This document shows, in pieces, positions 35,012 through 53,139 of a stretch of 64,000 nt of DNA. The stretch is from Desulfatiglandales bacterium. GTDB taxonomy: Bacteria; Desulfobacterota; DSM-4660; Desulfatiglandales; Desulfatiglandaceae. The notes under the pieces are model-generated. The model was given only the letters and a program-made list of their open reading frames with translations. It was not told where the DNA came from and did not search any database. The translations under genes and the position numbers were made by a program. Where the stretch lies: the NCBI GenBank assembly GCA_963666345.1, contig OY762721.1, positions 2,816,001-2,880,000 on the forward strand. Direction: 5' to 3'. Position 1 is the stretch's first letter. The number at the start of each line of letters is the position of its first letter.

Positions 35012-35058
35012 TAAACGGTAGCCGATAAGTTTAAAGAAAAGAATATGAGGAGACTAAA

Positions 35059-35499: not shown

Positions 35500-35552
35500 T
35501 TTAAACACAAAATTTATACCGGTTATGTATAGATGGGAGAAAGGAGAATAAA

Positions 35553-37268
35553 ATGGAGTTTATCCAAAAAAGATCACAAGACAGTGCCGTTGATCCGTTT
35601 CTTTTAAAGGCGGCAGATGAGGGTGTAGCCCTTGTGTGGGATCGCTATGAGGGACAGCTTCCTGAATGCGGTTTCTGTGAGGCGGGAATGAGCTGCAGGG
35701 ACTGTTTGCAGGGACCTTGCATCAGTCATCCCTTTAAGGGCGAAATAAACAAATCAGGAATTTGCGGAAAAGATAACGATACCCTTGCGGCCCACAGCCT
35801 TCTGAGGCTGGCGTTGAAGGGAACCATGGGTTATCTGGATCAGTTAAATGATCTATTGGAAGATCTTGAAAAAGGAAACATTGAGCCTGCCGACAAGGCT
35901 CAGACTGAAAAACTTGTCTCCCGGGCGAGGGACCTTTACAGGGTCGCGGGAAGTGAGGTGATCGATGCATTTCCGGAAACGATGTCCGAAAATTGGAGGA
36001 CTTCCGGAGTAGTTCCCCAGGGAGTTGCCAGGGATGTTATTAAGGCCTCTCAGAAACTTGAGGGTGGGATTGCCGATCTTAACGAGCTTGTGCTCTGGTC
36101 CTTTAAATGCTCCCTTCTGGGTGCGGTAGCCCAAAGGGCCGCAATAGCCCTTAAAAAGGCCGTTTTTGGAGATGTGACTCCTACCGAATTGTGCTTAAAC
36201 CTGGGTTGTCTGGCGGAAGAAAAACCGACGGTCCTTTTCTTCGGGAATGTTCCGACCGCATTGATCAGCAAGGTCTGTTCCCAGGCCGAGTCTGAAAATA
36301 TCGAAGTCGGGGGAGTTTGCACGGATACGCTTATATCCTCATACAAGATCTCACCGGTAACCAATTACGGGTCCCAGGAAGTTGCACTTATGACTGGTGC
36401 CGTGGATGTGATTGTTGTGGGGGATCAGTTTGTAAATCCCTCTCTTTCGGAGTTTGCTGAAAGATGGGAGGTAAAGATAATCAAGGCTCAGTCCATCAAG
36501 GGGCTCGGTAGTTATGATGTCGAGGCAAGCTCGATCATCGAGACGGCAAAAAGGGCCTTCGATACCCGCTCCAATGTTAAAAAGACTATCCCGGCGGCAA
36601 AAGACAGTGCCCTTATGGGTTATACCTCCGGACAGATCGATGCCGGAAAGATAATCAAGGCCCTTGATGAAGGTAAGATCAAGGGGGTGGCGCTTCTTTG
36701 CGGAAGCAATAATGTGAAATATTCTCAGGATAATGAGACGGTCGTCATGGCCGAGCATTTCCTGGAAAACGATATCCTCTGTTTTGCCGACGGTGAGGCG
36801 AGCATCACCCTGGCAAAAAAGGGATTTCTTAAGGCAGGGGAAAAGGGCGTATGCGGTGAAGGGCTTTCAAACGTTCTCGCAAGCCTGGGTGATGAAATCC
36901 CTGCGGTTATTGATATTACCTGCTACGGGGTAACCGATCTTCTGATTGATCTGGCAGGAGCCGCAGGAAAAGCGCTTTCCGAGTATCCTGTTTTCGCATG
37001 TTACCCGGAGGCCAACAGGACCATGGAGGTAACCAAGGCCCTGTGGACCGTGGCCATGGGAGTCCCAGTCTATTTCTGGCCGGCTCTGCCTGTAACCGGC
37101 AGTGCCAAGATGGTAAAGGCACTGAGCGAATTCTGCACGGAAACCTTCGGGGCAGGATTCAATATCATTGCAAGAAAGCGCCTTACCGCACTTGTGAAGG
37201 CCGGGAATATCGTGCAGGAAATGACAGGTGGCGAGAAAAAGAAGATGAGCGGCTACGAGTGGAGATAA
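35553..37268 (+). CDS. Divergent CooS (Ni-CODH/HCP superfamily) homologue lacking most C-cluster ligands
   Basis: VWDRYE...CGFCEAGMSCRDCLQGPC...GICG N-terminus, SQEVALMTGAVD and GSNNVK; catalytic ligands are substituted. Confidence 0.85.
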   Translation: MEFIQKRSQDSAVDPFLLKAADEGVALVWDRYEGQLPECGFCEAGMSCRDCLQGPCISHPFKGEINKSGICGKDNDTLAAHSLLRLALKGTMGYLDQLNDLLEDLEKGNIEPADKAQTEKLVSRARDLYRVAGSEVIDAFPETMSENWRTSGVVPQGVARDVIKASQKLEGGIADLNELVLWSFKCSLLGAVAQRAAIALKKAVFGDVTPTELCLNLGCLAEEKPTVLFFGNVPTALISKVCSQAESENIEVGGVCTDTLISSYKISPVTNYGSQEVALMTGAVDVIVVGDQFVNPSLSEFAERWEVKIIKAQSIKGLGSYDVEASSIIETAKRAFDTRSNVKKTIPAAKDSALMGYTSGQIDAGKIIKALDEGKIKGVALLCGSNNVKYSQDNETVVMAEHFLENDILCFADGEASITLAKKGFLKAGEKGVCGEGLSNVLASLGDEIPAVIDITCYGVTDLLIDLAGAAGKALSEYPVFACYPEANRTMEVTKALWTVAMGVPVYFWPALPVTGSAKMVKALSEFCTETFGAGFNIIARKRLTALVKAGNIVQEMTGGEKKKMSGYEWR

Positions 37269-37301
37269 TTCTCAGGCACAAATAGGATTTAATCCGTCAT
37301 A

Positions 37302-37324
37302 CCCCCACCTGTAACAGGTGGGGG
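37302..37324 (+). terminator. GC-rich hairpin (terminator or mRNA stabiliser)
   Basis: CCCCCACCTG-TAA-CAGGTGGGGG. Confidence 0.55.
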
Positions 37325-37435
37325 CTGTGACTCATTTTTAAAGGGGGTGATATCGAAATAAAGAGAAACCGGCTGAATTGAATCACTAAATTGTTCGGTC
37401 CTTTGCTAAAATTTTTCTACCAAGGAGGGTGACTT

Positions 37436-38476
37436 ATGGGAAAAAAAAGTGTATCGATCACAGCATTGTTTGTAGCACTGCTGTTTGCTTTCGGTCTGAT
37501 GAGCGCCGTGACGGCTGCTGCGGCTGATATCAAAAAACCTAATGACTTCCCCACAAGAAAAATTGAATGGAACCTCTGGTATGGACCGGGAGGCGGGACG
37601 GATATCTTTTCAAGGACTATCGGAATACCGGCCAGACGGTATCTCAAACCCGCACCCCTCGTAATAGTAAATATTCCCGGTGCATCCGGTGCAAACGGAA
37701 TGATCTACACTATGGAACAGCCGGCCGACGGATATTCGATAACCTCAATAGGAAACGATCTGCCCATAAACGATGTGCAGAAACGTGCCAAATTCGAAGG
37801 GAAGGCCCTTACTATTGACGATTTTGAGCCGATTATCCGTTGCCAGTACGATACTGCGACCATCCAGGTAAACAGCAAAAAGAGCAAGACCAAAGGCTCG
37901 GCATTCAAGGATGTAAAGGAATTTGTCGACTACGCAAAGAAAAATCCAAACAAGGTAATTATAGGAATCACCGGTTCTGCGGGATATGACGAGGTAGTCC
38001 TTTCCATGTGGCTCAATGCGGCAGGTATTACTGCCAAGGTCGTGCCTTATGATTCTGCGGGAAAGTGCCATGCAGCGTTGCTGGGCGGGCATGTCGATGC
38101 CATGTTTGAAGAGTTCGGCCCTACCGTTTCCCTCCTTGAGGGGGGACAGCTAAAGGCAATCCTTGTCTTCAAAGAAGAAAGGGTCAAGGATAAACGATTT
38201 GCCGACGTGCCCTGTTCCGTGGAACTCGGTTGGGATGTCACCATCGGCAGGTGGCGCGGTGTAGGCTGCAAAAAGGGGACCCCGCCAGAAAGAATCGAGT
38301 TCCTCCACCAGGTTTTCAAAAAGGCCATGGACCATTCAATATACAAAAACCTGGAAAAGGCTAATCTCCTTGATATCCGAGTAGGCTACATGGGACCGGC
38401 AGAACTTAAAGAGGCAATCAAGAAGGAGAAGGTGGTTTTTGAAAAGGTCCTCAAACAACTGGGTTATGTGAAATAA
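37436..38476 (+). CDS. tctC: Tripartite tricarboxylate transporter substrate-binding protein (TctC/Bug)
   Basis: Signal peptide; FPTRKI...GPGGGTD, NIPGASG, ADGY and LLGGHVD motifs. Confidence 0.88.
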   Translation: MGKKSVSITALFVALLFAFGLMSAVTAAAADIKKPNDFPTRKIEWNLWYGPGGGTDIFSRTIGIPARRYLKPAPLVIVNIPGASGANGMIYTMEQPADGYSITSIGNDLPINDVQKRAKFEGKALTIDDFEPIIRCQYDTATIQVNSKKSKTKGSAFKDVKEFVDYAKKNPNKVIIGITGSAGYDEVVLSMWLNAAGITAKVVPYDSAGKCHAALLGGHVDAMFEEFGPTVSLLEGGQLKAILVFKEERVKDKRFADVPCSVELGWDVTIGRWRGVGCKKGTPPERIEFLHQVFKKAMDHSIYKNLEKANLLDIRVGYMGPAELKEAIKKEKVVFEKVLKQLGYVK

Positions 38477-38510
38477 TCCGGCATAGTCCTGTTTGTTAAA
38501 TCCAATCAGA

Positions 38511-38535
38511 TCCTGAGGGCCAGGCGCCCTCAGGA
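38511..38535 (+). other. Intra-operon hairpin after tctC
   Basis: TCCTGAGGGC-CAGGC-GCCCTCAGGA, with no U-tract. Confidence 0.55.
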
Positions 38536-38553
38536 CCCTAAAAGGGAACAGTT

Positions 38554-39072
38554 ATGTTTGGAAATCTATTGATGAGTCTTTCCGTGCTGGCAGGGTCTAT
38601 TTTCATGTATTACAAGGCCACCCAGCTCAGACAAATGCAGACGCAGGGCTATGAGTCGGTAGGGCCCGATTCCTGGCCGAAACTTATCTTGATATGCCTT
38701 ATCGCCCTGGGTGGTTATCTGAGTATCAAATATGCAGTGAAATTAGCGAAAAGCAGGGGTTCTTCAGAAAACGAAATCCCCAATCCTCCGGAACAGGGTG
38801 AAGGGAAGGAGGGTTGGATAAGGATAGGTATTACGACCCTTTTCATCGTGCTCTATATCTACCTCCTTAAGCCCCTGGGATTTATTGTTGCAAGCCCGCT
38901 TTTTATCATCGCAATGATGCTCTATATCAATCCCAATAAAAAGAGGATCATACCTGCAAGTGTCTTGGGTATCATGGTAATTATCTATCTGCTTTTCGGA
39001 AAACTTCTTTATATCCCCCTTCCCAAGGGAAGCGGTGTTTTTAGGCAGGTAAGCATTCTGCTTGGACTTTAG
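38554..39072 (+). CDS. tctB: TTT transporter small membrane subunit
   Basis: Four to five hydrophobic segments, GPDSWP, LGF and LYIPLPKG. Confidence 0.85.
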   Translation: MFGNLLMSLSVLAGSIFMYYKATQLRQMQTQGYESVGPDSWPKLILICLIALGGYLSIKYAVKLAKSRGSSENEIPNPPEQGEGKEGWIRIGITTLFIVLYIYLLKPLGFIVASPLFIIAMMLYINPNKKRIIPASVLGIMVIIYLLFGKLLYIPLPKGSGVFRQVSILLGL

Positions 39073-39217
39073 TTTGTTGAAAAATCTGCTTTCTTCGACT
39101 GTTGAAACGTCTGGAAATATTAGTATGAAAATATACCCGTCAAGAATCTTAAGAGATTCCATCATTATGGGGAGATAGAGACGGAAAGGTGTTAACTTCC
39201 GTATGTAAGGAGATACG

Positions 39218-40714
39218 ATGTTAGACTACTGGGTAAGTGGTTTGTTTACAGCTATACAGCCGGGCAATCTTCTAGTCCTTGCCATTGGGACCTCTCTTGG
39301 GATACTATCAGGTGGTATCCCTGGGATAAGCGGGACAATGGCCATTGCTCTTGCCGTGCCGGTTACTTATACGATGGGTCCGGACAAGGCCTTGTTTCTT
39401 CTTGTATCACTTTATGCATCCTCTGTATATGCAGGATCCATAAGTGGAATCCTGTTCAGGACACCAGGCGCGCCGGAAGGAGCCGCTGCGACCCTGGACG
39501 GTCATATGATGACCAAAAAAGGTCTGGCCGGTGAGGCCTTGGGATGGGATATTGCAAGTTCGGTAACAGGGGGTATCTTCGGCACTATTGTGCTGGCCCT
39601 CGTTGCACCGCAGCTTGCCAAGGTTGCCCTTCAATTCGGTCCTCCCGAATATTTTGCCCTGGCATTCCTGGGTTTGAGCGTTGTCAGCAGCCTCGGTACA
39701 AAAAATACTGCCAAGGCCCTTGTCTCCGTTCTTATCGGTCTTATGGTTGCAACCGTTGGGATTGACAAAATTTCAGGCTTCAACCGATTTACCTTCGGTA
39801 CCAACACCCTTCTCGGGGGGATAAATTTTATTCCTACCATAATTGGACTTTTTGCTGTTGCCGAAGTTTTAAACAGGCTCAAGGAACAGCGGCAGATGGA
39901 GGGCATTCGGGCAAAGGCAAGGGCAAAACTTCCCAAATTAAAGGCCATGTGGAAACGGAAATGGCTGTATGCCAGATCGGCATGTATCGGCGCCTTTATC
40001 GGGATCCTTCCCGGTGTGGGTGCGACAACTGCTTCCTTTGTGGGTTTAAGTGAGGCGGTGCGATGGTCCAAGGAGCCGGAGAAATACGGCACAGGCATTC
40101 CTGAAGGGATAGCAGCGCCCGAAACGGCCAACAATGCCGCCTGCAGTGGCGCCATGGTGCCGCTTCTTACTATGGGCATCCCCGGAAGTGCCGCGACGGC
40201 ACTGATGCTGGGGGCTCTTTTAATCCACGGTCTGAAACCGGGGCCGCTACTTTTTCTTCAGCAGCCAAAACTGGTTTATTCTATATTCGTTGCCATGTTC
40301 CTAGCTAATGTACTTATCATATTCTTTGCCAAGGGTTTTATAAGGTATTTTTCAAAGATAATAGAGCTTCCCTACAACATACTGGGGCCGGGAATCATCA
40401 TCTTCTGCATAGGCGGCGTGTTTGCCATAAGGAACAACTTCGGCGATATCTGGATTATGATGGCGTTTGCCGTAGCCGGGGTCTTCATGGAAAAATATGA
40501 CTATCCTCTCGCCCCCCTTATCCTGGGCGTAGTGCTCGGCCCCATTGCCGAGGAAAACCTTCGCCAGGCCATGATTATCTCGGGAGGTGATTATTCGGTC
40601 TTTTTCAGCACCCCCATATCTATCTCTCTCATGGTGGTTGGAATAATGTCGTTATTTTCCCAGCAGATCAGGTTTCTCTTTAAGATGTCGTTCAAGAGAG
40701 GGAAAAGTGCGTGA
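39218..40714 (+). CDS. tctA: TTT transporter large membrane subunit
   Basis: GGIPGISGT, FRTPG, GPPEYF, APETANNA and LTMGIPGS motifs. Confidence 0.92.
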   Translation: MLDYWVSGLFTAIQPGNLLVLAIGTSLGILSGGIPGISGTMAIALAVPVTYTMGPDKALFLLVSLYASSVYAGSISGILFRTPGAPEGAAATLDGHMMTKKGLAGEALGWDIASSVTGGIFGTIVLALVAPQLAKVALQFGPPEYFALAFLGLSVVSSLGTKNTAKALVSVLIGLMVATVGIDKISGFNRFTFGTNTLLGGINFIPTIIGLFAVAEVLNRLKEQRQMEGIRAKARAKLPKLKAMWKRKWLYARSACIGAFIGILPGVGATTASFVGLSEAVRWSKEPEKYGTGIPEGIAAPETANNAACSGAMVPLLTMGIPGSAATALMLGALLIHGLKPGPLLFLQQPKLVYSIFVAMFLANVLIIFFAKGFIRYFSKIIELPYNILGPGIIIFCIGGVFAIRNNFGDIWIMMAFAVAGVFMEKYDYPLAPLILGVVLGPIAEENLRQAMIISGGDYSVFFSTPISISLMVVGIMSLFSQQIRFLFKMSFKRGKSA

Positions 40715-40786
40715 ATACCTTTTAAATGGGCAAAAATATAGACGGGGATCAGCTCGTTAATGTGAAACGGAAATTAAGGGGATATT

Positions 40787-41941
40787 ATGAATCTGTCACA
40801 CAGGGAAAGGGTCCTTAAAGCGGTAAACCACCAAAAACCGGACAGGGTCCCAAGGGATCTGGGAGGGGCGTTTACATCGAGTATTGCAAGTGTGGCCTAT
40901 GAAAACCTAGCCGATTTTCTTGGCCTTGATCTTGAAACAAGACTGATGCGAAAATGGGCACGTGTAGTTCATCCGGATGAGAAGATCCTCCGGCATTTTG
41001 ATATTGACACAAGGATGGTCGTTCCCAGATATGATGAAGGTTGGAACGAATACTGGAAAATTGCGCCGGTTGAAAATGAAGATGCATACATCGATGAGTG
41101 GGGCATCAAATGGAGCAGGCCGGAATCAAAGATGGGCCCGTATTTTATGACCACTCATCCGTTGGCTGATATCGAAAGTGTTGATGAACTGGAGAATTTC
41201 ATCTGGCCTGATCCTGAAGACCCGGCCCGCTATGAAGGTCTTGAGGAACAGGCTAGACGGCTTAAAAACGAGACTGATTATGCCGTAATAGGGGTTTTTC
41301 CACGGCCCATAGTGTCTCTGAGTCAGTTTATGAGAGGGTATGAAAAATGGTTTCTTGATTTTATGATGAATCGGGAACTCCTAGAGGCAATCATGGATAT
41401 CATAGTGGAGACCAATCTCAGAATAGGGAAAAATATCCTCGACAGAATAGGGAAATACATAGATCTTGCTTTTTTCCATGACGATCTGGCTACCCAGCAA
41501 AGCCTTATGGTCTCACCGGAGCACTATCGGGAGATAATAAAACCTCGTCATAAGAAACTCTTCGACCTTGTAAAAACCCATAGTGATGCTAAGATTATAT
41601 ACCATACGGACGGTGCGGTATTTCCGATCCTTGAGGATTTTATCGAAATAGGGGTAGACGCCCTCAATCCGGTGCAGACATCGGCCCAGGGCATGGATGG
41701 GAAGGCCCTGAGCAGTAGTTTCGGGGACAGGCTTTGCTTCTGGGGGGCGATTGAAAGCCAAAAGGTGCTGCCAACAGGCACACCCGAGGAAGTGTTTGAG
41801 GAGGTAAAAAGACAGATTTCCGATCTGGGAAAAAATGGCAATTACGTTCTCGGTGCCTGCCACAATATCCAGGACGATGTGTCGCCCGAAAATGTTATCG
41901 CCATGTTTGAGGCTGCAGATAGATTCGGTATCTATGATTGA
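40787..41941 (+). CDS. Uroporphyrinogen decarboxylase / MtaA-CmuA superfamily protein of unknown function
   Basis: SHRERV...PDRVP, DEWG, DDLATQ, YHTDG, LNPVQ and CHNIQ motifs. Confidence 0.8.
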   Translation: MNLSHRERVLKAVNHQKPDRVPRDLGGAFTSSIASVAYENLADFLGLDLETRLMRKWARVVHPDEKILRHFDIDTRMVVPRYDEGWNEYWKIAPVENEDAYIDEWGIKWSRPESKMGPYFMTTHPLADIESVDELENFIWPDPEDPARYEGLEEQARRLKNETDYAVIGVFPRPIVSLSQFMRGYEKWFLDFMMNRELLEAIMDIIVETNLRIGKNILDRIGKYIDLAFFHDDLATQQSLMVSPEHYREIIKPRHKKLFDLVKTHSDAKIIYHTDGAVFPILEDFIEIGVDALNPVQTSAQGMDGKALSSSFGDRLCFWGAIESQKVLPTGTPEEVFEEVKRQISDLGKNGNYVLGACHNIQDDVSPENVIAMFEAADRFGIYD

Positions 41942-41974
41942 GCCTATTATAAATAAGGAGGATTACCTGTTTAA

Positions 41975-42232
41975 ATGGCTTTTATTCCCACTGTTGATAA
42001 AGAAAAGTGCAAAGGCTGTGAAGAGTGTGTTGATATATGCAGCCCAGAGGTGTTCGAGATGCGCGGCGGAAAGGCCGAGGCGGTGAATAAGGACAGATGC
42101 GTCGGCTGTGAAAGCTGTGTGGAGGTGTGTGAAAACGACGCCATTACCGTGACCGATACGAGACATAAATTGTCTGACCAGTGTGCCTTCCTGTTCAGGG
42201 AGATCCTTGCAGAGGACGAGATGACCGGGTGA
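41975..42232 (+). CDS. 2x[4Fe-4S] ferredoxin with C-terminal extension
   Basis: CKGCEECVDIC and CVGCESCVEVC; paralogue of the ferredoxin at 2382. Confidence 0.88.
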   Translation: MAFIPTVDKEKCKGCEECVDICSPEVFEMRGGKAEAVNKDRCVGCESCVEVCENDAITVTDTRHKLSDQCAFLFREILAEDEMTG

Positions 42233-42294
42233 GGGCAGGTCCTGTCCCGGCAGAGCCCGAACAAAAAGCATGTAAGACGAAGACGGAAAAGGGA

Positions 42295-43455
42295 TTACCT
42301 CCCGTATTCATCAACCAGCCCCTTGAATATATCAAGCACCCTCTGAAGGTCCCTTCTGCTGGTGCCGAAGGTGGATATCTTCATTGATTTGGTAAGTCCA
42401 TGTTTTAGGCCGAAGATGTCGTTTTTTTTAAGCTCATTGTAAAGGAAGGCCCTCTTTTTGGGATGCACCTTTGAGATTTCATAGAATATATCCGTAATGA
42501 ACATCATGAGGTCGTGGTTGTGGGGCTTTTCCCCCATCTGGACGCAGCCCAAATTTTCGAGTTCCGATGAAAACCACCTGGCCTTTTCCACCTCCCCGTC
42601 CCAGTGCCTTACCCTTTCCACGACATCCGGAAAAGATGCCATGAGCGTAATCAGAGGGGTTCCCCTTACGGAACATCCCAGGCACTCAAGTTCCTTTCCC
42701 TTATTGGTGGGAGACTCCTGGCAGACAAGGTCTTCCCACTTCTTGTTGAGGCCCAGAACACCTATTGGACCGGCTGACGCCATGCTCTTGTGTCCGCTGC
42801 AGACAATGAAATCGGCGCCTATTTCGTTCATGTTTACAGGCATCCTGCCTACCGCATACGCGGCGTTCAGAAGAAAGGGAACCTCGTACTCCTGTGCAAT
42901 TTCACCAAGGCGACGGGCATTTGGAAGATTGCCCACATTCCCGTCCGGGTAGGTCAGCAAAAGAAGAGAGGGGCGGTGTTCCTTTATCAGTGGTATGTAA
43001 TCCTCCACGTCGATCAATCTTCTGTCATCATCTGAATTGGGAACCTTTACGATCTCAAGCCCTGCCCGCTGCGCGGCCACATCGGTTGAATAATGTCTGT
43101 TTCTGTCAACGACAATAACATCACCCGGTTTTGTAACGGAATGAATGACCATGAATTTTCCTTCACGGGCCCCATGGGTTATGCGGGTGGTGTCGGCGCC
43201 TATGAAGGCAGGCAGATCATTGAAGACAAATTCAGAGATAGGGGGATTCGATATCTTTTCAAGTGTACCTTTACAGTGATCACACACGGAGTAGCCGTCC
43301 CCGAATTCCTCAAGCGCCCTTCGGGCGGAAGGAGTGAGACGGGAGCCGGTCTGAAGCGGGTTTATGATTATACTTTCCCTGTGCTTTCTGGTGAGGTTTC
43401 CATATTTGTTCCTGAGTTTTTCCACATCGAGTGTTTTTTCAACTGCGTCTGCCAT
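42295..43455 (-). CDS. pscS: Sep-tRNA:Cys-tRNA synthase (SepCysS)
   Basis: INPLQTG, GDGYSVCDHC, THGAREGKF, PDGNVGN, NAAYAVGRMP, PLP-lysine motif SGHKS and LGCSVRG. Confidence 0.93.
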   Translation of the reverse strand: MADAVEKTLDVEKLRNKYGNLTRKHRESIIINPLQTGSRLTPSARRALEEFGDGYSVCDHCKGTLEKISNPPISEFVFNDLPAFIGADTTRITHGAREGKFMVIHSVTKPGDVIVVDRNRHYSTDVAAQRAGLEIVKVPNSDDDRRLIDVEDYIPLIKEHRPSLLLLTYPDGNVGNLPNARRLGEIAQEYEVPFLLNAAYAVGRMPVNMNEIGADFIVCSGHKSMASAGPIGVLGLNKKWEDLVCQESPTNKGKELECLGCSVRGTPLITLMASFPDVVERVRHWDGEVEKARWFSSELENLGCVQMGEKPHNHDLMMFITDIFYEISKVHPKKRAFLYNELKKNDIFGLKHGLTKSMKISTFGTSRRDLQRVLDIFKGLVDEYGR

Positions 43456-43475
43456 CTCTGCGTCCCTTCTAATAC

Positions 43476-44996
43476 CTATTTCCTCTCGTATGTCACGCTC
43501 AGAAATATAGGTCCTTTTACCATGGTTTTCTTGTGTTCTCCCGTCATGTGCTCCTTTATCTTCCTGGGCAACTGCAGGTTTATGTCGCCCAAGGTCTTTG
43601 CCATCCTCGTCCGGAACAGCTCGCTTTTTTGGCCTTTTTCAAATGCCTCTTCAATCTTTGCCGCCATTCCGTGTGAGATTCCCTGAATATAGCTGAAAAG
43701 CGCGTTGTTCTCCCCGCCTTCAAGTTGACTGAGGATGTTTCCGTCTTCAATATAGACCTCATTGAATGTGGCCGGGCCAACCAGCCTTTTGTTTTCCTCT
43801 TTTTCAATTACCTTGATAACCATCTCATCATCCTCGTAAGCGATGAATTCGCATGGTGAAGCCGCGTCTCTGTTCTTGCGGACCGAAGCCTCAATCGCCC
43901 CGGCTATATTTTTCCCTCTTTCAGTGGTGGGAAAATCGATATATATGAGCGATTCTTCGGCAGATTCATCAGAGTAGTTGAGTGCCCCGAATTGAGGGAA
44001 GACAAGTTCTCTTATGTCGGAGTAACCTTTTGTGACCATCGTAAGCCTTTCGATTCCGAACCCCGCATTGAATACGGGATATTTGATTCCGAAGTTGGCC
44101 AGGGAAATGGGAGAATACATGCCTATGTCTCCAATTTCGAGCCATTCGCCTTTCCACTCGGCAAAGACCTCTTCCTCAAGGTCCTTGGCGTAATACTTGG
44201 ATGTGGCCTTTTTCCGCTCGAACCTGGCATCGCTGAATCCGAGTTCAAGAAGGAACCGGCGGGTTATCTTTTTCCCAGCCTCAAGTGACATGTTAGGGTC
44301 CATCACTACCATTGAGGCCGAATTATGAACCCTGAGATGTCCTTTGTCCTCCCGCTGTTCGTTCCTGTACCTGAGACCTGCGGAGAAAAGGGCGATGGGA
44401 TAGTTGGACGTGTCCTGCAGGGCCGCCAGCGTATGGTACCATGTGCCTGTCATATGTGTCCTCAGGGTCATGTTTGTCGGCTGCGGGGTCAACTGCTTGA
44501 ATTCGGGAAAACAGCTTGAGAGAATCTGGGTGGCCTGTTCCATCTCGATGTCTAACTGTTTGACGAGCTCCTCAATGAAATCGTCTCCCTCTATCTCACC
44601 CTTTTTATATGATCTCAGGATATCTTGCAGTATTTCAGAATCAAATTCGCCTATGATGGATTCAATCTGATGTATTTTATCATAGCTTAGTCCAATATCG
44701 GGTCTGGGCAGCTTTGCCAGATAAAATGCCCTGTCCAGGATGACGGGGGATTCCGGACCGTACTGTTTGTATACATCCTCATCAGATATTATGGTCCTGT
44801 TCTCCATTTCTGAAAAGCCCATTTTGGAGAGGATTTCTCTGCACTCCTGAACGCATTCCCTTAACGGGTGCAAGGTTCCCTTCTGCTTTATGTTGACAGA
44901 GGTGTTGCGTGGGATAAGATCTGCTGTCTCAATCCAAGCCTTCTCAAAGTTTCCCTTTGATTTTTTTATTATCGTCTTAATAGGTAGTTCAGCCAC
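43476..44996 (-). CDS. sepS: O-phosphoseryl-tRNA(Cys) synthetase (SepRS)
   Basis: FEKAWIET, YKQYGPE..VILDRAFYLAKLPRPDIG, YKKGEIEGDD, TLRTHMT, REDKGHL..H.SAS, SKYY, GIERL, GDINL and KGPIF; GTG start. Confidence 0.93.
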   Translation of the reverse strand: MAELPIKTIIKKSKGNFEKAWIETADLIPRNTSVNIKQKGTLHPLRECVQECREILSKMGFSEMENRTIISDEDVYKQYGPESPVILDRAFYLAKLPRPDIGLSYDKIHQIESIIGEFDSEILQDILRSYKKGEIEGDDFIEELVKQLDIEMEQATQILSSCFPEFKQLTPQPTNMTLRTHMTGTWYHTLAALQDTSNYPIALFSAGLRYRNEQREDKGHLRVHNSASMVVMDPNMSLEAGKKITRRFLLELGFSDARFERKKATSKYYAKDLEEEVFAEWKGEWLEIGDIGMYSPISLANFGIKYPVFNAGFGIERLTMVTKGYSDIRELVFPQFGALNYSDESAEESLIYIDFPTTERGKNIAGAIEASVRKNRDAASPCEFIAYEDDEMVIKVIEKEENKRLVGPATFNEVYIEDGNILSQLEGGENNALFSYIQGISHGMAAKIEEAFEKGQKSELFRTRMAKTLGDINLQLPRKIKEHMTGEHKKTMVKGPIFLSVTYERK

Positions 44997-45469
44997 TTTA
45001 TGTTACCTTTCCGTTAATTGATGAATGTAACCGGATTCTGTTTTGAAAACCTCATATGAATATTCTTTTAATGTGTTTGTCTTATGTAAAAATCAGTATG
45101 CATAAAAAGCTGGTATTCAACATCATCGGAAAAATTTCATCAGGATATTTTCATTACATTGAAAAATTGTCAACAGCCCCGGATAGTTTTTTAAAAAAAG
45201 TGATGATCTTTTTCGTCTCGATAGATCTAGAAAATAAGGTGAAATAATGTGCCGTGTCAAGGAATATAGGATAACCCTGATCCTTCATTAATTTATCGTC
45301 TTTTCATATTATGGCATGTCTCAGAGATTTTATCGCAACAGGGCAAAAAACCTCATCGGTTCTGAAAAAAGGCCTGAATGATGAAACGGATCTTACGTCA
45401 ATTGAATGTGTTAACCGGCCGGTAAGGATATCGTAATCGGCTTTACCGGTGAAACGGATATCCCGGAAA

Positions 45470-46759
45470 TCAAATCATTTCCCTCTGCTGGCCTGTCGAC
45501 TCGATTACACTGTTCCACAATCTTCCTCTCGGATCTATCTTTTTCCTCTTTGATACTGCCAGCGGGATGGGGACATGGGTATAGTGACCGCTCCAATATC
45601 CCACCACCATGTTGGTTCTTCCGGCCATGCCCGCGTGTACCGCATTGTGCCCCAGTAATAGACAGAACACGGAGTCATGCGGGTTGGCGGGCATGCTTCT
45701 GATGGTGTAGCTGGGATCGATATACTTAAGATCCACCTTTATATCCAGACTCCGGAAATATGCCTTGATTTTGTCCCTGAGAAATATCCCTATATCCTGA
45801 AGCCTGATATTTCCGGAAGGGTCGTGACCTGAATCCTTTCCGACCATGTCCTGCCCCGCGCCTTCCGCAACAACAATCACCGCGTGCTTTCTGAGGAACA
45901 GCCGCTCTCTCAGTTGTTCAAACAGGATATCCAGGCTGAAGGGGACCTCGGGGATGAGACAGAAATTTACCTCACTGTTTGCAAGTGTGGCATTTGCGGC
46001 GATAAAACCCGATTCCCTGCCCATGAGTTTGACCAGGCCGATTCCGTTTCTGGCTGCAACCGCCTCGGCATGGGCACAGTAGATTGATGTCTTGGCCTCT
46101 GCTACTGCCGTTTCAAAGCCGAAGGACTTGTTCAGAAAAGATATGTCATTGTCAATGGTTTTTGGAATTCCTATCACGGAGATTTTCAGATTTCTTTCCC
46201 TGATCTCATCGGATATCGCCTGTGCCCCTCTCAGGGTGCCGTCCCCTCCGATGGCGAAAAGGATGCCGATATTCATCCTTTCAAGCGTATCCACCATCTC
46301 CGGGATATCCTGGGGGCCCCTTGAAGTCCCAAGTATGGTTCCTCCCTGCTGGTGAATATCCAAAACCTCGGAGGGTGTAAGTTCCAGGGGTTCGTGGCTG
46401 TACTTCGGAGACAGCCCCTCATAGCCGTAGCGGAAACCGAACACTGTCTTTACCCTATAATGGTACAAGAGACTGAGGACTATCGATCTGATCACGTCGT
46501 TTAGTCCCGGGCAAAGCCCTCCGCAGGTTACTATCCCGCATTTGAGCTTTGAGGCGTCAAAATAGATATGGCGCCTGGGGCCTGCCATTTCAAAAGAGGG
46601 GAGCGGCTTCCCATTACCGATGATTCGCTTCAAATCTTTTAGATTCGAGTAGTATAATACACGCTCATCTTCGTCTACAAACTGGGCTCCCTGCATGGGC
46701 GAGTCTATACGGCATGGTCCGAGTGTCTGTATCTCAAAATCCAGGCTCTCTGTTTTCAT
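45470..46759 (-). CDS. pfkA: 6-phosphofructokinase (probably ATP-dependent)
   Basis: TCGGLCPGLN, GGDGT, PKTIDND, MGRESG and YIDPSY motifs. Confidence 0.92.
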   Translation of the reverse strand: MKTESLDFEIQTLGPCRIDSPMQGAQFVDEDERVLYYSNLKDLKRIIGNGKPLPSFEMAGPRRHIYFDASKLKCGIVTCGGLCPGLNDVIRSIVLSLLYHYRVKTVFGFRYGYEGLSPKYSHEPLELTPSEVLDIHQQGGTILGTSRGPQDIPEMVDTLERMNIGILFAIGGDGTLRGAQAISDEIRERNLKISVIGIPKTIDNDISFLNKSFGFETAVAEAKTSIYCAHAEAVAARNGIGLVKLMGRESGFIAANATLANSEVNFCLIPEVPFSLDILFEQLRERLFLRKHAVIVVAEGAGQDMVGKDSGHDPSGNIRLQDIGIFLRDKIKAYFRSLDIKVDLKYIDPSYTIRSMPANPHDSVFCLLLGHNAVHAGMAGRTNMVVGYWSGHYTHVPIPLAVSKRKKIDPRGRLWNSVIESTGQQREMI

Positions 46760-47040
46760 GAAAAGGCCCCCTAGATCCGGTTTAGTTTTTTGAAAGGTAA
46801 TGTCTTCGATTCTTTCTGTCTGGAAAATGCGTCTCAAGCCGGTTAAATCAAAATTGAACTCATATTTGACGCGAAATTTACATCCCTGTTATCTGATATC
46901 GCCTATTGGAGAAGAATAGGCAAAGGTGCCTCCGGTGTCAAGAATCCGGTATCGCCCGGTTTTGACTTTTTCCCTGTCAATAAGTTATCCTTACGGATAG
47001 CTGTGAATCTAATCTTTTAAGAGAGGTTCGAAATCAGAAT

Positions 47041-48456
47041 ATGAGATATCTGGACATAAAGACAAAGATTATATGCACGATAGGTCCTTCCTGTGAAACC
47101 CCCGAAGCCATAAGAGAACTTATAGTCAACGGCATGAGTATGGCAAGGCTCAATTTTTCTCACGGGAAAAGAGAGGAGCATGCCAGCAAGATTTCCATAA
47201 TCAGGGATAGCGCAAAAAGGCTTGGAAGGCCTGTGGCGATACTCCAGGATCTGGCAGGGCCGAAGATAAGGGTGGGAACGATACCCAAGCCCGGGATAAA
47301 GCTTGATCCCGGAAAAGAACTTGTACTCACCACCGAAGATATCATAGGGGATAAAGACAGGGTGCATGTAAATTATAAGCCGCTTCCTGAAGAAGTGAGT
47401 CAGGGGGACAGGGTGCTACTTGCAGACGGCCTCATGGAACTCAGGGTAAGGGATGTAAAGGCCGGTGAGATCTATTGTGAGGTGATTACGGGCGGTGTGC
47501 TTACGTCCCACAAGGGGTTGAATCTTCCTTCCGGCACCATAAAGGCGCCTTCCATGACGGAAAAGGATAAGGTGGATCTTCTTTTCGGCCTGGCTCACGA
47601 CGTAGATTATGTGGGTGTTTCATTCGTTCGACAGGCGGATGATATTATACGGGTTCGCCGAATAATAAAAGAGGGGGGGAAAGATATCCCTATTATCGCG
47701 AAGATTGAAAAACATGAGGCGATAAAGAACCTTGATGATTTAATGGAGGCGGCCGACGGAATAATGGTCGCAAGGGGGGATCTTGGCGTGGAGATCCCGC
47801 TTGAGGAAGTCCCTCTTCTTCAAAAGACTCTGATCAGAAAGGCCAACTATATGGGAAAACCGGTAATTACGGCTACCCAGATGTTGAGGTCGATGGTCGA
47901 TTCGCCCAGACCGACCAGGGCGGAGGCCAATGATGTGGCCAACGCCGTTTTGGACGGAACTGACGCGGTGATGCTTTCGGAGGAAACCGCCATCGGCAGG
48001 TATCCGGTAGAGGCTGTCGGATTTATGGCCAAAATAATAAGAAACGCTGAAAAAGGATTCCCCCACCGGAAGTATCTTGAGATGACACCGAGAAAAGATG
48101 TGGCCGAATCGGTGGCTCACGCTGCCTGTATGCTTGCGGATCATCTTGATGCCGAGGCGATCGTTCCCACGACCGAGTCTGGAACAACCGCCATACATGT
48201 GTCGAGATTCAGGCCGAAAAGTACCGTTCTGGCCCTTTCGCCCAATGAGGAAATAGTCAGGCGCCTGTGCCTTTTCTGGGGATGCATCCCCATGCTGCTT
48301 CAGGACACCAAGGATACCGATGATATGATAGAAAAGGTCTCAAGCGCTGCAATCGCATCAGAGCTGGTCTCTAAAGGTGATACCGTTGTTATAACCGCAG
48401 GTCATCCGATATGGGTCGCCGGCACTACCAATATGGTACGCGTGAAACGCCTATAG
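47041..48456 (+). CDS. pyk: Pyruvate kinase
   Basis: TKIICTIGP, RLNFSHG, MVARGDLGVE and ATQML motifs. Confidence 0.97.
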   Translation: MRYLDIKTKIICTIGPSCETPEAIRELIVNGMSMARLNFSHGKREEHASKISIIRDSAKRLGRPVAILQDLAGPKIRVGTIPKPGIKLDPGKELVLTTEDIIGDKDRVHVNYKPLPEEVSQGDRVLLADGLMELRVRDVKAGEIYCEVITGGVLTSHKGLNLPSGTIKAPSMTEKDKVDLLFGLAHDVDYVGVSFVRQADDIIRVRRIIKEGGKDIPIIAKIEKHEAIKNLDDLMEAADGIMVARGDLGVEIPLEEVPLLQKTLIRKANYMGKPVITATQMLRSMVDSPRPTRAEANDVANAVLDGTDAVMLSEETAIGRYPVEAVGFMAKIIRNAEKGFPHRKYLEMTPRKDVAESVAHAACMLADHLDAEAIVPTTESGTTAIHVSRFRPKSTVLALSPNEEIVRRLCLFWGCIPMLLQDTKDTDDMIEKVSSAAIASELVSKGDTVVITAGHPIWVAGTTNMVRVKRL

Positions 48457-48465
48457 TTAGTGATC

Positions 48466-48516
48466 GTCCATGAATCAAGATTTATGGACTCACGCTATCA
48501 GCTGTCAGCTGTCAGC
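48466..48516. repeat. Hairpin plus heptamer tandem repeat between convergent pyk and argF
   Basis: GTCCATGAATC-AA-GATTTATGGAC, then GCTATCA-GCTGTCA-GCTGTCA. Confidence 0.45.
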
Positions 48517-48625
48517 AAAACATTCGGAATATCAATTTATTTGCTGCTTGCTGAAAGCAGTATCCGGGTGTGAGCACTGGATTGGCACTAGTTATATGTA
48601 AAGCATCCAGGATGCAGAGGACCTA

Positions 48626-49603
48626 TTAAACCCTGCCCAGAGTGGAAATCATGACCGCCTTTATTGTGTGTACCCTGTTTTCCGCCTGCTCAAATACAAG
48701 GGAATTCTTCCCCTCGAACACCTCCTCGGCTGTTTCACATATATCAGGAAACTGCCTTGCCATGGACGTATCCCGATTGTGAAAACTCGGCAGGCAGTGA
48801 AGGAATATACAATCCGGATTTCCGGTATTATCAAGGGTTTCCCGGGTCACTCGAAACGGCTTTAGCAGTGCGATCCTTTCGGCGATTTTATCCTCCTCAC
48901 CCATCGAGGCCCATACGTCGGTATAGATGACATCGGCATCTTTTATCCCCTGATTTATCTGAGAGGTTATGAGGATTTTACCACCGCTTTTTTCTGCAAA
49001 CCGATCGGCGCTTTCTATTATATCACTTTCAGGTTGAAGCTCTTTCGCTGAGACCAGCCTGAAGTCCATTCCCATCTTTGCGGCACCGATAAGAAGAGAG
49101 TTTGCCATGTTGCTCCTGCCGTCTCCCATGTAGGCCAGTCTGATACCTTTTATGCGGCCTTTCGCCTCAAGGATTGTCATAAGATCGGCAAGCGCCTGCG
49201 TGGGGTGGAACCTGTCGGTAAGCCCGTTCCATACGGGCACTCCGGCAAACGCAGCCAGTTCTTCAACCGTGGAATGCTGGTAGCCCCTGAATTCAATGCC
49301 GTCAAACATCCTGCCGAGGACCCTTGCAGTGTCTTTGACCGATTCCTTTTTGCCCAGCTGGATGTCTCCTTTTCCAAGGTACTCGGCATGAGCGCCTTCA
49401 TCGTTGCTTGCTATGATAAAGGCACATCTGGTTCTGGTGGACGGTTTTTCAAAGATAAGGGAGATATTCAAGCCCTGCAGCCTGTTTTTCCTTATGCCCG
49501 CCTTTTTTTCCTTTTTAAGAGAAATGGAAAGATCAAGCAGAAATCTTATCTCCTCCTGGCTGTAATCAATAAGGGTCAATAAATTCTTGTTTTTTAAGTC
49601 CAT
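48626..49603 (-). CDS. argF: Ornithine carbamoyltransferase
   Basis: STRTR, HPTQ, DVWASMG and HCLP motifs. Confidence 0.93.
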   Translation of the reverse strand: MDLKNKNLLTLIDYSQEEIRFLLDLSISLKKEKKAGIRKNRLQGLNISLIFEKPSTRTRCAFIIASNDEGAHAEYLGKGDIQLGKKESVKDTARVLGRMFDGIEFRGYQHSTVEELAAFAGVPVWNGLTDRFHPTQALADLMTILEAKGRIKGIRLAYMGDGRSNMANSLLIGAAKMGMDFRLVSAKELQPESDIIESADRFAEKSGGKILITSQINQGIKDADVIYTDVWASMGEEDKIAERIALLKPFRVTRETLDNTGNPDCIFLHCLPSFHNRDTSMARQFPDICETAEEVFEGKNSLVFEQAENRVHTIKAVMISTLGRV

Positions 49604-49663
49604 GTTGTTTTGTCTCCTTGAGCAAAGGGAACCGGGGCTTGGACATTTTTCCGGAAAAGGGGC

Positions 49664-50893
49664 TTACTCCTCCGTGTCCATTTCGATCCGGCCCTGAGCC
49701 TCTTCAGGAAATTGTTTCAAAGGGATATGCCTGGCCTTTCTCAATTCCTCAATCTTGTTTAACGGCCTGTCCAGCTGCCGCCTTCTTGTGGAAGTCAGAA
49801 TTTCATATTCCTTGAGTGAGTCCCTTATCCTGTTGCCAAGGACCTCCATCTTTTTTGTAAATGTCTCCCACTGTTTTCGGAATGCCCCCAACAGGGAAAG
49901 TATCTCGTTTGATGTCTGTTCAAGCGCAAAATTTTCAACTGCCTGCCGTATCACCGCAAGAATGGCAAAAAGCGTGAAAGGAGAGCAGATTATTACCCTC
50001 ATTTTCATCCCTAAATCGATAATGGAACTGTCCTGTTCGTTTATAAAAGTATATACCTGTTCATTGGGTATGAAAAGCAATACATAGTCGAGCGTATTCT
50101 GCTCGGGATTTATGTATTCCCGCGTTGTGACCTCCTTTATCCTCGCTTTTACGTCCTTGAAGAAGTTGTTGAGAAGCGTCATTTTTTGATGGGGTGAAGT
50201 TTCGTCCAGATATTTCAAGTAGTTGTCAAGAGGAAACTTCACGTCCATATTCAGTTTATGGTCTTTCGGAAGAAAAAAGGTGAAATCGGGTCTCGTGCCT
50301 ATCCCCTCGATGGTCCTCTGTTTCTGATAGTTTATATTTTCAATGAATCCGCAGATCCTTAATACGTCCTCCGCCATCCTCTCTCCCCACTGCCCACGGT
50401 ACTTGCTGCTGGCGAAGGCCTCCCGGAGGGCGTTTGTGGTTTTCATGAGCGATGTGGTCTGTTCATTCGTATTTTTCAACTGGTTTGAAAGTTCCCCGAA
50501 TTTATTGACCCTGTCCCTTTCAAGCTCCTTGACCAGTAGTGAGATATTCTCGAATTCCGATGCCATGCGTTTGAGTTGTTCATCTATGAGCCCCTTTTTT
50601 GCCTCCATATCCTTGGTGCTGATTTCTCTTTCAGATTCAAATTTCTCCTTGGCAAGCTTCAGGAATTCCTCCGTGGATTTGGAAAGGGCATCAAGGGACA
50701 AATTGCCGAATATATCCTTTATATTGGAGGTGATCGCCTCCAGGTTTTCCCTGCGCTGTGATTCGGTTTCATTCAGCATTTCCCTGGCGATTTGGTAGGA
50801 GGCCTTTGAATGAAAAAGCCTGAATATGAAAGCAACGCCTATGCCGATCAAAAAACCGGCCAGAAAAGGGAAAAAGGTATTAACCCAACCCAT
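49664..50893 (-). CDS. rmuC: RmuC-family protein
   Basis: N-terminal TM helix, coiled coil, RGQWGE, RPD, DVKFP and FIPNE motifs. Confidence 0.9.
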   Translation of the reverse strand: MGWVNTFFPFLAGFLIGIGVAFIFRLFHSKASYQIAREMLNETESQRRENLEAITSNIKDIFGNLSLDALSKSTEEFLKLAKEKFESEREISTKDMEAKKGLIDEQLKRMASEFENISLLVKELERDRVNKFGELSNQLKNTNEQTTSLMKTTNALREAFASSKYRGQWGERMAEDVLRICGFIENINYQKQRTIEGIGTRPDFTFFLPKDHKLNMDVKFPLDNYLKYLDETSPHQKMTLLNNFFKDVKARIKEVTTREYINPEQNTLDYVLLFIPNEQVYTFINEQDSSIIDLGMKMRVIICSPFTLFAILAVIRQAVENFALEQTSNEILSLLGAFRKQWETFTKKMEVLGNRIRDSLKEYEILTSTRRRQLDRPLNKIEELRKARHIPLKQFPEEAQGRIEMDTEE

Positions 50894-51263
50894 AAAACTC
50901 TCCGATTTGTTTCATCATAGAAGACCTGGTTTACTTAGCCGGCCGACGGCCGAGCGCCGGCAGCGTAAATACGGAAAAAGGCCATTGCCGGATGAGCCTC
51001 AATCCGGTCCCGAGTGCAGTAAATTTATTAGAGCAGTGCTGCCTTGTCAACGTAAATGGGATCAAAGGTGACTTGACCTGCAATTTCAAATGCCTTAATC
51101 ATAACGTTAAGCCATACGATGTGAACATGCGCTGTTAACGATTCAACCTGTAAGGGGAAATGCGTTCTTCCCTTTCTGTTCCGTCTTTTACCATACAAGA
51201 CATAAACTGTCCGATTGTTTCAAGTGCGGGCCCTTTTCCTGGATTTTTATCAAGGGGGTGATT

Positions 51264-52406
51264 ATGCGTCCACTGGATGGCATCAAGGTTGTTGAGATGG
51301 CGGGTCTTGCCCCATCTCCATACTGCGGAATGATCCTGGGTGATTTTGGCGCCGATGTGATTGTCGTTGACAGGCTTTCGGGTGCGGCTCCCGAGGTCCC
51401 CAACGTTATGAAAAAAAATCCTTTTGACCGGGGGAAAAGATCGATGCGGATCGACCTCAAAAAGGGCCCGGGAGTAAAGATCTTGAAAAGGATCGTCCGT
51501 GATTCAGATGTCCTGCTTGAGGGATACAGACCGGGCGTGATGGAGGCCATCGGTCTGGGGCCGAAAGAGGCGCATGAGACAAATCCGGGCCTTGTCTATG
51601 CCAGACTGACAGGCTGGGGACAGTCCGGACCCTATTCAGGCATGGCGGGTCATGACATAAACTACATTGCCGTGTCCGGGGCCTTGTCCCTTTTCAGGAG
51701 AAAAGGTGAAAGGCCTCTGCCGCCATGCAATCTCCTGGGTGATTTTGCCGGGGGCGGATTGCTATGCAGCCTCGGAATAGTGTTGGCGATCCTTGAAAAA
51801 AACAGGTCAGGCAAGGGACAGGTAATCGATTCAGCCATGGTGGAGGGGGCTGCGAATCTCTCCACTTTTTTTTACGGCCTTACGGCAAACGGGCTTATGT
51901 CTCTCGATATAGGAACGAACATGCTGGACAGCGGCGCCCCGTATTACCAGGTATACGAAACTGCGGACGGAAAATATATGTCAGTGGGAGCAATAGAGAC
52001 CAGGTTTTACGAAAACCTGCTTCAAGGCCTGGGATTGGAATCAACCTGCCTGCCGGAAAAGAACGACAAGAAAAAATGGCCGGAGGTCAAAGAGCTTTTC
52101 TCACGTGTATTCAAGACAAAAACTAGGCGGCAATGGGAAGGCATCTTTATCGGAAAGGATGCATGCGTAGCTCCGGTTCTGGAGTTAAGCGAGGTGAATG
52201 ATGACAAGCACAACCGCGAGAGAAACACCTTCGTAGATGTTGATGGATCTGTGCAGCCGTCGCCTGCGCCGAGGCTTTCAAGGACTCCCGCCGTGGCTTC
52301 AGACACCAATTTGCCCAGAGGCGCTCATACCGAAGAGATCCTCCTGGAGCTGGGGTACAAGGATGAGGAGCTGAAGGAGTTGTTTGAAACCGGGATCGTT
52401 GAATAA
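51264..52406 (+). CDS. CaiB/BaiF class III CoA-transferase (alpha-methylacyl-CoA racemase-like)
   Basis: RGKRS, EGYRPGVME, GHDINY and NLLGDFAGGG motifs. Confidence 0.88.
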   Translation: MRPLDGIKVVEMAGLAPSPYCGMILGDFGADVIVVDRLSGAAPEVPNVMKKNPFDRGKRSMRIDLKKGPGVKILKRIVRDSDVLLEGYRPGVMEAIGLGPKEAHETNPGLVYARLTGWGQSGPYSGMAGHDINYIAVSGALSLFRRKGERPLPPCNLLGDFAGGGLLCSLGIVLAILEKNRSGKGQVIDSAMVEGAANLSTFFYGLTANGLMSLDIGTNMLDSGAPYYQVYETADGKYMSVGAIETRFYENLLQGLGLESTCLPEKNDKKKWPEVKELFSRVFKTKTRRQWEGIFIGKDACVAPVLELSEVNDDKHNRERNTFVDVDGSVQPSPAPRLSRTPAVASDTNLPRGAHTEEILLELGYKDEELKELFETGIVE

Positions 52407-52421
52407 GGTGCCGGCCCTCTT

Positions 52422-53105: not shown

Positions 53106-53139
53106 AATAAATGCCCGGTAATATCTCCGGGCATTTATT
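53106..53139 (-). terminator. Intrinsic terminator after the EF-G gene
   Basis: AATAAATGCCCGG...CCGGGCATTTATT inverted repeat. Confidence 0.7.

Follow-up and report, generated by a model that had tools for sequence, protein, structure and literature searches.

The window analysed here (64,000 nucleotides; G000:C1:2816001-2880000) belongs to the genome of a Desulfatiglandales bacterium, G000, assembled as a single contig of 4,162,108 bp. It carries, on the minus strand, an operon of two genes for the indirect formation of Cys-tRNA(Cys): sepS, which encodes SepRS (the O-phosphoseryl-tRNA synthetase), and behind it the gene for SepCysS (pscS), the Sep-tRNA:Cys-tRNA synthase. Our reading, to which a probability of roughly 0.8 is given, is that the host lineage gained this operon and later lost both of its genes for cysteinyl-tRNA synthetase (CysRS), and that the cell by now makes Cys-tRNA(Cys) by the two-step route alone. 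Judged from the gene content, a core synthetase has most likely given way here to one gained by horizontal transfer. The indirect route is regarded as an archaeal trait. To our knowledge, CysRS is normally universal in bacteria, and the few bacterial carriers of the indirect route that we know of are all uncultured and represented by draft genomes only. The genome presents a new host for a known mechanism and no new mechanism; what it would indicate is that a synthetase from the bacterial core set can be ousted completely by a system of archaeal type, and that CysRS can be displaced without the operon being needed in cysteine synthesis.

Identity of the two genes

The sepS gene (43476-44996, minus strand) starts with GTG and encodes 506 amino acids (aa); the SepCysS gene (42295-43455, minus strand) starts with ATG and encodes 386 aa. 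Direct reading of the 20-bp spacer between them (43456-43475, minus strand) reveals a purine-rich ribosome-binding site, GAAGGGA, 5' of the sepCysS ATG. The co-orientation, the spacing and the ribosome-binding site had been described in an earlier note on this DNA and were all seen in the window's open reading frames (ORFs), the strand, which that note left unstated, being minus. All of the SepRS and SepCysS motifs that it quoted are present in the translations.

Both proteins exceed the NCBIfam cut-offs for the identities proposed in the earlier note. SepRS scored 431.9 bits against TIGR00470 (sepS; cut-off 380.65), with residues 8-503 of 506 covered, and SepCysS scored 481.8 bits against TIGR02539 (cut-off 365.25). 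Better matches to PheRS-alpha for the first protein, or to SepSecS or a cysteine desulfurase for the second, were also considered and are excluded by the NCBIfam scores. The PheS model TIGR00468 reached 102.8 bits on SepRS (cut-off 237.45) and the PylRS models remained far under their own cut-offs; on SepCysS the SufS, NifS and IscS models gave 48 bits or less, and the Pfam SepSecS family, which matches at 124.5 bits, is left far behind by the TIGR02539 equivalog. Pfam otherwise recognized a generic class II core in the one protein and SepSecS/aminotransferase folds in the other, and nothing more specific in either.

Residues 5-504 of SepRS align with residues 14-547 of the Methanocaldococcus jannaschii enzyme (2DU7/5X6C; E 4.5e-107), and the architecture is that of the solved SepRS structures, with an N-terminal extension, a class II core with an insertion and a C-terminal anticodon-binding domain. 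The last of these is 3+14 residues shorter than in M. jannaschii, and the 14-residue gap fits the absence of an m1G37-recognition helix. SepCysS aligns over residues 23-384 with SepCysS1 of Archaeoglobus fulgidus (2E7I/2E7J; E 2.7e-125), with a 4-residue gap at about A. fulgidus positions 145-148 and nothing inserted at 234/235 in the alignment with 2E7I. The three conserved cysteines, which we take to be active-site residues with a catalytic role, are C58, C61 and C261, opposite A. fulgidus cysteines 39, 42 and 247. The lysine that binds pyridoxal phosphate (PLP) corresponds to K223, which stands opposite A. fulgidus position 209 and chain position 254 of M. jannaschii 3WKR; in M. jannaschii SepCysS the PLP lysine is Lys234 (PMC5688128). 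The intact lysine and cysteines that the earlier note had read from motifs are hence borne out by alignment.

A change of substrate, such that the SepRS homologue would no longer be a phosphoserine ligase and Cys-tRNA would be made otherwise, is considered very improbable. There is a precedent for it in the 'deltaproteobacterial' SepRS-like genes from the White Oak River metagenomes (Mukai et al., 2022, PMC8762117, section 3.3.1), which are SepRS homologues from the same former class and lie on contigs with deltaproteobacterial neighbours. Those genes carry Tyr-Leu-Ser in place of the Asn-X-Gly that is perfectly conserved in true SepRS and changed in SepRS-like proteins, and their authors doubt that they ligate phosphoserine (PMC8762117). 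In the G000 protein, by contrast, the motif is kept as Asn-Ala-Gly (N310-A311-G312, opposite Asn-Leu-Gly in M. jannaschii), N310 and G312 being invariant in a 12-sequence SepRS alignment (A1). The protein also lies over the sepS equivalog cut-off, groups with canonical operon-type SepRS, and has a SepCysS partner with all catalytic residues encoded 20 bp downstream.

Loss of CysRS, tRNA-Cys and the supply of cysteine

Over the whole one-contig genome of G000, the best match to the CysRS model TIGR00435 reached 36.6 bits against a cut-off of 340; in a control the same model gave a match in each of 14 genomes, and 13 of these matches exceeded the cut-off. Searches of G000 by tblastn with the CysRS proteins of two relatives, G003 and G008, and with a CysRS fusion protein of G003 recovered merely class I synthetases of about 23% identity (best E 3e-6), together with a match of the N-terminal half of the fusion to the genome's own CysK. 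CysRS is over the cut-off in all of the 40 relatives surveyed (24 from the same family and 16 from the same order). In G003 and G008 the cysS gene is flanked by a 681-aa gene on one side and a 169- or 197-aa gene on the other. In G000 the orthologues of these flanking genes (77% and 64-66% identity) have only 231 bp between them, and this spacer holds no remnant of cysS. Since cysS is gone from its syntenic site in a closed genome, its absence is to be read as gene loss at a conserved locus and not as an assembly gap. The earlier note had left open whether the operon replaces or supplements CysRS; with no CysRS found and the syntenic cysS missing, replacement is favoured and supplementation is not.

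Most of the 40 relatives possess a second CysRS frame of about 770-865 aa besides the canonical copy of about 490-520 aa. The long frame of G003 (L026:5625-7994, G003:C2) is a PALP (CysK-like) domain at residues 29-307 fused to CysRS catalytic and DALR domains at 339-733. G000 is without this second frame too.

The host genome holds 47 tRNA genes detected by ARAGORN, among them a single tRNA-Cys and also a tRNA-Sec. The tRNA-Cys gene (G000 2888408-2888483, about 8.4 kb past the end of the window) has a GCA anticodon, A37 and U73, and is 86-95% identical to the tRNA-Cys of 29 CysRS-using relatives. Its D-loop reads TTGGT in place of the TGGCT of most relatives, and two alignment columns differ from all 29; G15, A13, A22, U73 and A37 are all kept. 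The D-loop change could have followed from relaxed or altered constraint after the switch of synthetase, although it is a single case.

The genes for the supply of O-phosphoserine are in place, with one SerC (477.1 bits) and two SerA proteins (663.2 and 617.1 bits), all over their cut-offs. A cluster of nifS, a serine O-acetyltransferase gene and cysK lies at about G000 1516219-1519201. Its NifS scored 550.6 bits (cut-off 530.75) and its CysK 449.7 bits (cut-off 350.95); the CysE-like acetyltransferase is under the cut-off of one model (TIGR01172, 162.5 bits against 210.65) and over that of another (NF041874, 156 bits against 150). The genome search that the earlier note had proposed yielded tRNA-Cys, SerA, SerC and CysE/CysK, with cysS alone not found. 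Given the presence of nifS, cysE and cysK, the operon would serve tRNA charging and would not be needed for cysteine synthesis. To judge from these genes, SepRS-SepCysS is most likely the sole route to Cys-tRNA(Cys) and not to cysteine. The earlier suggestion that the operon replaces or supplements CysE/CysK is consequently not upheld in its first part, and in its second could hold at most in the sense of a supplement.

It may still be asked whether the pair is kept mainly for cysteine biosynthesis, an unrecognised enzyme also charging tRNA-Cys, so that the operon only supplements charging. Where SepRS coexists with CysRS in an organism, the indirect route is considered to be mainly biosynthetic (PMC8762117), and the nearest named carrier, a Woesearchaeota archaeon, has the operon plus a CysRS of 444.6 bits. 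The methanogen-type homocysteine gene described below (Pfam HcyBio, 514.9 bits) points the same way. On the other side, cysE-cysK and nifS already meet the biosynthetic need in G000, a CysRS homologue is undetectable by hidden Markov model or tblastn searches, and the syntenic cysS is cleanly gone. This explanation is accordingly regarded as unlikely.

The homocysteine gene is located at G000:C1:2923094-2924164 (minus strand), about 43 kb beyond the window end. Mukai et al. (2017, PMC5424206) remark that genes of the HcyBio type are found together with SepCysS in certain deltaproteobacteria and Chloroflexi.

Under the replacement reading, events and functions may be pictured as follows. In a genus-level lineage of Desulfobacterales-like sulfate reducers, the gain of a 'bacterial/DPANN'-type sepS-sepCysS operon would have been followed by the loss of both CysRS genes. 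O-phosphoserine would be supplied by SerA and SerC, and SepRS would load it onto the single tRNA-Cys (GCA, U73, A37). SepCysS, as a PLP enzyme with three conserved cysteines, would then swap the phosphate for sulfur to give Cys-tRNA(Cys). CysE and CysK would make free cysteine for other needs, and translation would no longer draw on the free cysteine pool. If this is true, the state differs from that of methanogens, where the route is also the only cysteine source, and the organism would offer, in enrichment or culture, a bacterial system in which to ask why the indirect route outcompetes CysRS in sulfidic, Fe-S-rich cells. G000 is probably, though with less assurance than the replacement itself, the first closed-genome bacterium to have captured a DPANN-type operon and then lost its two CysRS paralogues while CysE/CysK were kept, its Cys codons being served only by phosphoserine-derived cysteine and its translation uncoupled from the cysteine pool. 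The naturally bacterial-adapted SepRS and tRNA-Cys(A37) parts may also be of interest for genetic-code expansion with phosphoserine.

Chromosomal contiguity and origin of the operon

Several points weigh against the replacement reading. We infer the enzymatic activity, expression and essentiality of the pair in its host, the supply of sulfur from a donor, and the order of gain before loss from the genes. A non-homologous or highly divergent Cys-tRNA-forming activity may escape homology searches, and the abandonment of CysRS by a cell that makes free cysteine is unexplained. The marker genes of G000 indicate 96.7% completeness and 3.4% contamination, even though the genome is one contig. In run X1, probably from the source sample, the assembled Logan contigs break at 42068-42097 (a 30-base overlap), 200 bp downstream of sepCysS, the depth being 9.6 on the left side and 21.8 on the right; from this step in depth it follows that the sample holds more than one left-flank variant. 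Contigs from a metatranscriptome (X8) match portions of both genes, at about 95-99% identity, and of the region upstream, each contig with 1-7 differences. RNA libraries can carry DNA, nor need these contigs be from this strain; they are a weak hint of transcription.

The X1 break, together with the fact that the closest named homologues are from DPANN archaea, might be taken to mean that the operon is an assembly chimera or a contaminant from such an archaeon and no part of a bacterial chromosome. There is again a published parallel. A 'putative deltaproteobacterium (CG bacterium no. 3)' was given as a carrier in PMC5424206, and the supplement of PMC8762117 later assigned its contig, on which a piece of a deltaproteobacterial transposon lies, to a Woesearchaeon instead, so that the sole published 'deltaproteobacterial' case was withdrawn in 2022. 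For G000, however, this explanation is scarcely credible, as three independent assemblies tie the operon to the core chromosomal genes pfk, pyk, argF and EF-G, and two of them also tie it to the left flank. One X1 contig of 24 kb begins at 42068, takes in the operon and extends past 48500 with zero differences, and a second covers 39000-42097. Run X3, an independent marine-sediment metagenome, gave one 29-kb contig with 12 differences over 41970-48500; leftward of this, about 1.4 kb is replaced, followed by pieces of the left-flank transporter gene at about 80% identity with their order kept. The JGI contig L038 (98.6 kb) matches 41970-54996 at 99.9% identity and 33406-38340 at 95%, again in the same order.

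The segment between these two blocks, window 38341-41969 (3.6 kb), has no blastn match in L038 and constitutes a strain-variable cassette, in which a 172-aa ORF is accompanied by the genes for a membrane protein of 498 aa and an MtaA/CmuA-like methyltransferase. The X1 break is the edge of this cassette to the left of the operon and not of the operon itself. The depths of 9.6 and 21.8 at the right edge of the cassette suggest two co-occurring strain variants. The upstream region at 45000-45470 (472 bp) is unchanged across all three assemblies. Continuity at about 42230 and at 45000-45470, the two places where the earlier note had asked for such a check, was examined in this way; independent contigs span both and a chimeric join is ruled out. 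The composition of the genes also speaks against a stray archaeal origin, with GC of 0.47-0.50 and host-like codon usage as against the GC of 0.30-0.34 found on DPANN contigs.

The host itself is a sulfate reducer, to judge by the window. DsrO (304.7 bits, cut-off 200) and DsrP (494.6 bits, cut-off 350) are encoded at 131-2159. Leaving aside the protein itself, the EF-G of the window has its closest relatives at 77-78% identity, and in the 120 matches listed the names shown are all Desulfobacteraceae, Desulfobacterales, Deltaproteobacteria or 'Proteobacteria', most rows being nameless. Because of DsrO and DsrP in the window and the names among these EF-G relatives, the host is taken to be a deep-branching, Desulfobacterales-like sulfate reducer. 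The right flank of the operon comprises pfk, pyk, argF, an RmuC-like gene, moaB, EF-G, xerC, hslVU and argBDGH. As to the bacterial flanks listed in the earlier note, DsrO, DsrP, EF-G, XerC, HslV and HslU were confirmed, and the matches for a c3-type cytochrome and for the RmuC-like protein were weak.

SepRS is rare amongst the relatives of this bacterium. It is over the cut-off in one of 41 genomes (G000 and the 40 relatives), in one of 209 genomes from the class (a set with 104 further members of the host's family), and in two of 401 genomes in an even sample of the phylum. The second phylum match, G111, is a Desulfobacterota metagenome-assembled genome (MAG) of another family, 90% complete and 6% contaminated. 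Its SepRS (L035, G111:C242) is an open frame of 656 aa, longer at the N-terminus by about 150 residues, lies on a 2.9-kb contig of a 590-contig MAG, and is far from the G000 SepRS in the tree. G111 also has a SepCysS (392 bits; L149, G111:C48 also listed) and no CysRS at E <= 1e-20. SepRS was not found in the one-contig genome G073, the sole other genome of the G111 order. The G111 SepRS is possibly contamination, and a second Desulfobacterota carrier is not established.

In a large protein collection the best non-self SepRS is 64% identical (P0002) and the best SepCysS 73%; a SepRS and SepCysS pair of 98% identity is present on one 14.9-kb Logan contig. Woesearchaeota, Nanoarchaeia and Nanobdellota are the nearest named among the matches listed (SepRS 53-59%, SepCysS 61-64%), followed, among the same matches, by Dehalococcoidia/Chloroflexota (SepRS 52-54%, SepCysS 57-59%). 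A partial SepRS of a 'Desulfobacterales bacterium' is already in NCBI (P0025). Quick IQ-TREE trees were built from 56 rows for SepRS (from 120 listed matches and 3 loci) and from 51 rows for SepCysS, many rows in each being nameless. In the SepRS tree, G000 and P0001 group with P0002 inside a 12-row clade (SH-aLRT 100) that includes Woesearchaeota CG and Nanoarchaeia, and this clade is separate from the Dehalococcoidia clade and from a small clade with P0025. In the SepCysS tree, G000 falls into a 29-row clade (SH-aLRT 100) with named DPANN sequences, again separate from Chloroflexi. The comparison with archaeal and Chloroflexi clades proposed in the earlier note was thereby made and gave a DPANN grouping; this tree position and the single occurrence among 209 genomes of the class bear out its claim that an intact operon was acquired horizontally. 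The direction of transfer, between DPANN archaeon and bacterium, is not proven by such quick trees, but transfer involving DPANN-like archaea would have reached a major group of marine sulfate reducers.

Both genes have GC of 0.47-0.50 and third-position GC (GC3) of 0.57, and their codon fit is at the 82nd-91st percentile of host long ORFs, all three measures lying within about 1.2 standard deviations of those ORFs. GC is 0.30-0.42 on the JGI contigs whose SepRS comes closest (57-61% identity), and the flanks there are only 30-43% identical to G000 proteins. Because the composition of the genes is host-like in comparison with these low-GC contigs, the transfer would appear to be old enough for amelioration, or to have passed via a host of similar composition. 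Of 82 related loci, 65 hold both genes; all 65 pairs are on one strand, 64 have sepRS first and 62 have at most 300 bp between the matches, and from these arrangements sepRS-sepCysS evidently moved as a unit. A search of genome contigs for SepRS only returned 7 loci, all archaeal. The pfk orthologues of G003 and G177 (71-72% identity) have wholly different neighbours, the MtaA-like left neighbour of the operon had no match in 5 relatives, and family scans of the L040 and L042 flanks gave no taxonomic signal.

Comparison with known systems and neighbouring features

The operon resembles the type found in Chloroflexi and Parcubacteria, whose SepRS and SepCysS were active in vitro, charging tRNA-Cys with A37 and yielding Cys-tRNA (Mukai et al., 2017, PMC5424206). 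Bacterial SepCysS of that type is missing both the loop at A. fulgidus 144-147 and an insertion of 8 residues between 234 and 235, and bacterial SepRS is without the m1G37-recognising helix and has a hydrophilic residue in place of A. fulgidus Ile444 (PMC5424206). G000 shares with the Chloroflexi (Dehalococcoidia)/'Ca. Parcubacteria' operon the order sepRS then sepCysS, the 4-residue loop deletion and missing 8-residue insertion after 234 in SepCysS, the shortened anticodon-binding domain of SepRS, and the A37 tRNA-Cys. Its SepRS and SepCysS are nevertheless only 51-54% and 57-60% identical to those of Dehalococcoidia and form a separate, well-supported clade. It also differs from the Chloroflexi and Parcubacteria cases in its host phylum and in that loss of CysRS is demonstrable in a closed genome; the presence of CysRS in the bacterial carriers is not discussed in the available parts of PMC5424206.

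The nearest named carrier is Candidatus Woesearchaeota archaeon CG_4_10_14_0_2_um_filter_33_13 (L028), which shares the clade of G000 in both trees and has the same operon order, with 59% identity in SepRS and 67% in SepCysS. It is, however, a DPANN archaeon with GC of 0.34 that keeps its CysRS (444.6 bits), whereas G000 is a 48% GC bacterium without one. The M. jannaschii transsulfursome (SepRS-SepCysE-SepCysS; 2DU7, 3WKR, 5X6B/5X6C) is alike in its full-length protein alignment and in that, CysRS being absent, Cys-tRNA comes from the two-step route only (PMC8762117). In M. jannaschii, though, the route is also the sole cysteine source, SepCysE acts as a scaffold and tRNA-Cys carries m1G37, as compared with the retained CysE/CysK and A37 of G000. 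SepCysE is lacking in bacteria as a general statement of PMC8762117 (section 3.1.1), no search for it having been made in G000.

The earlier note had named Parcubacteria and Chloroflexi as the bacterial carriers, which is incomplete, as Mukai et al. (2022, PMC8762117) distinguish four clades of SepRS in bacteria, with Desantisbacteria-like bacteria and one of the Nitrospirae among the carriers. One of these other clades has SepRS with an N-terminal tRNA-Thr-ED editing domain (Desantisbacteria-like, Nitrospirae HyVt-268; PMC8762117 section 3.2.2). The G000 SepRS is without an extension of this type; the G111 SepRS may belong to the ED-fused clade, its extension being ED-like by eye. A Desulfobacterota SepRS-SepCysS operon with loss of CysRS was found nowhere in the searchable literature, a scope that leaves subscription journals and the genome's own paper outside, and the available part of a 2022 archaeal review does not connect SepRS with Desulfobacterota. 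The names of both genes would already be given by automatic annotation.

Upstream of sepS lies an AT-rich region (44997-45469, minus strand; GC about 0.38 in the composition profile) that contains candidate sigma-70-like hexamers, TTGACA-18-TATTTT, at 45260-45231 (minus strand), recognized by consensus match alone. At the other end of the operon, a consensus scan showed a terminator-like hairpin over the sepCysS stop codon (42283-42305, minus strand). The evidence for it is weak, with one such site in 41900-45600 compared with a mean of 4.5 in shuffled sequence.

Convergent with sepCysS is an ORF for an 85-aa ferredoxin-like protein (window 41975-42232, plus strand), inside the 99.9%-conserved block. 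Its top NCBIfam match is HgcB, at 47.7 bits and under the 99-bit cut-off. An HgcB-like ferredoxin as a partner of the operon was considered and rejected, since it recurs solely in the same-species contig L038, at 1 of the 82 loci.

Farther to the left in the window, an ORF of 1570 aa (9423-14135, minus strand) had no NCBIfam match at E <= 1e-15. A 1406-aa protein encoded at 3220-7440 (minus strand), downstream of dsrOP, combines GltD-like and HdrA-like parts and adjoins HdrC- and HdrB-like genes.

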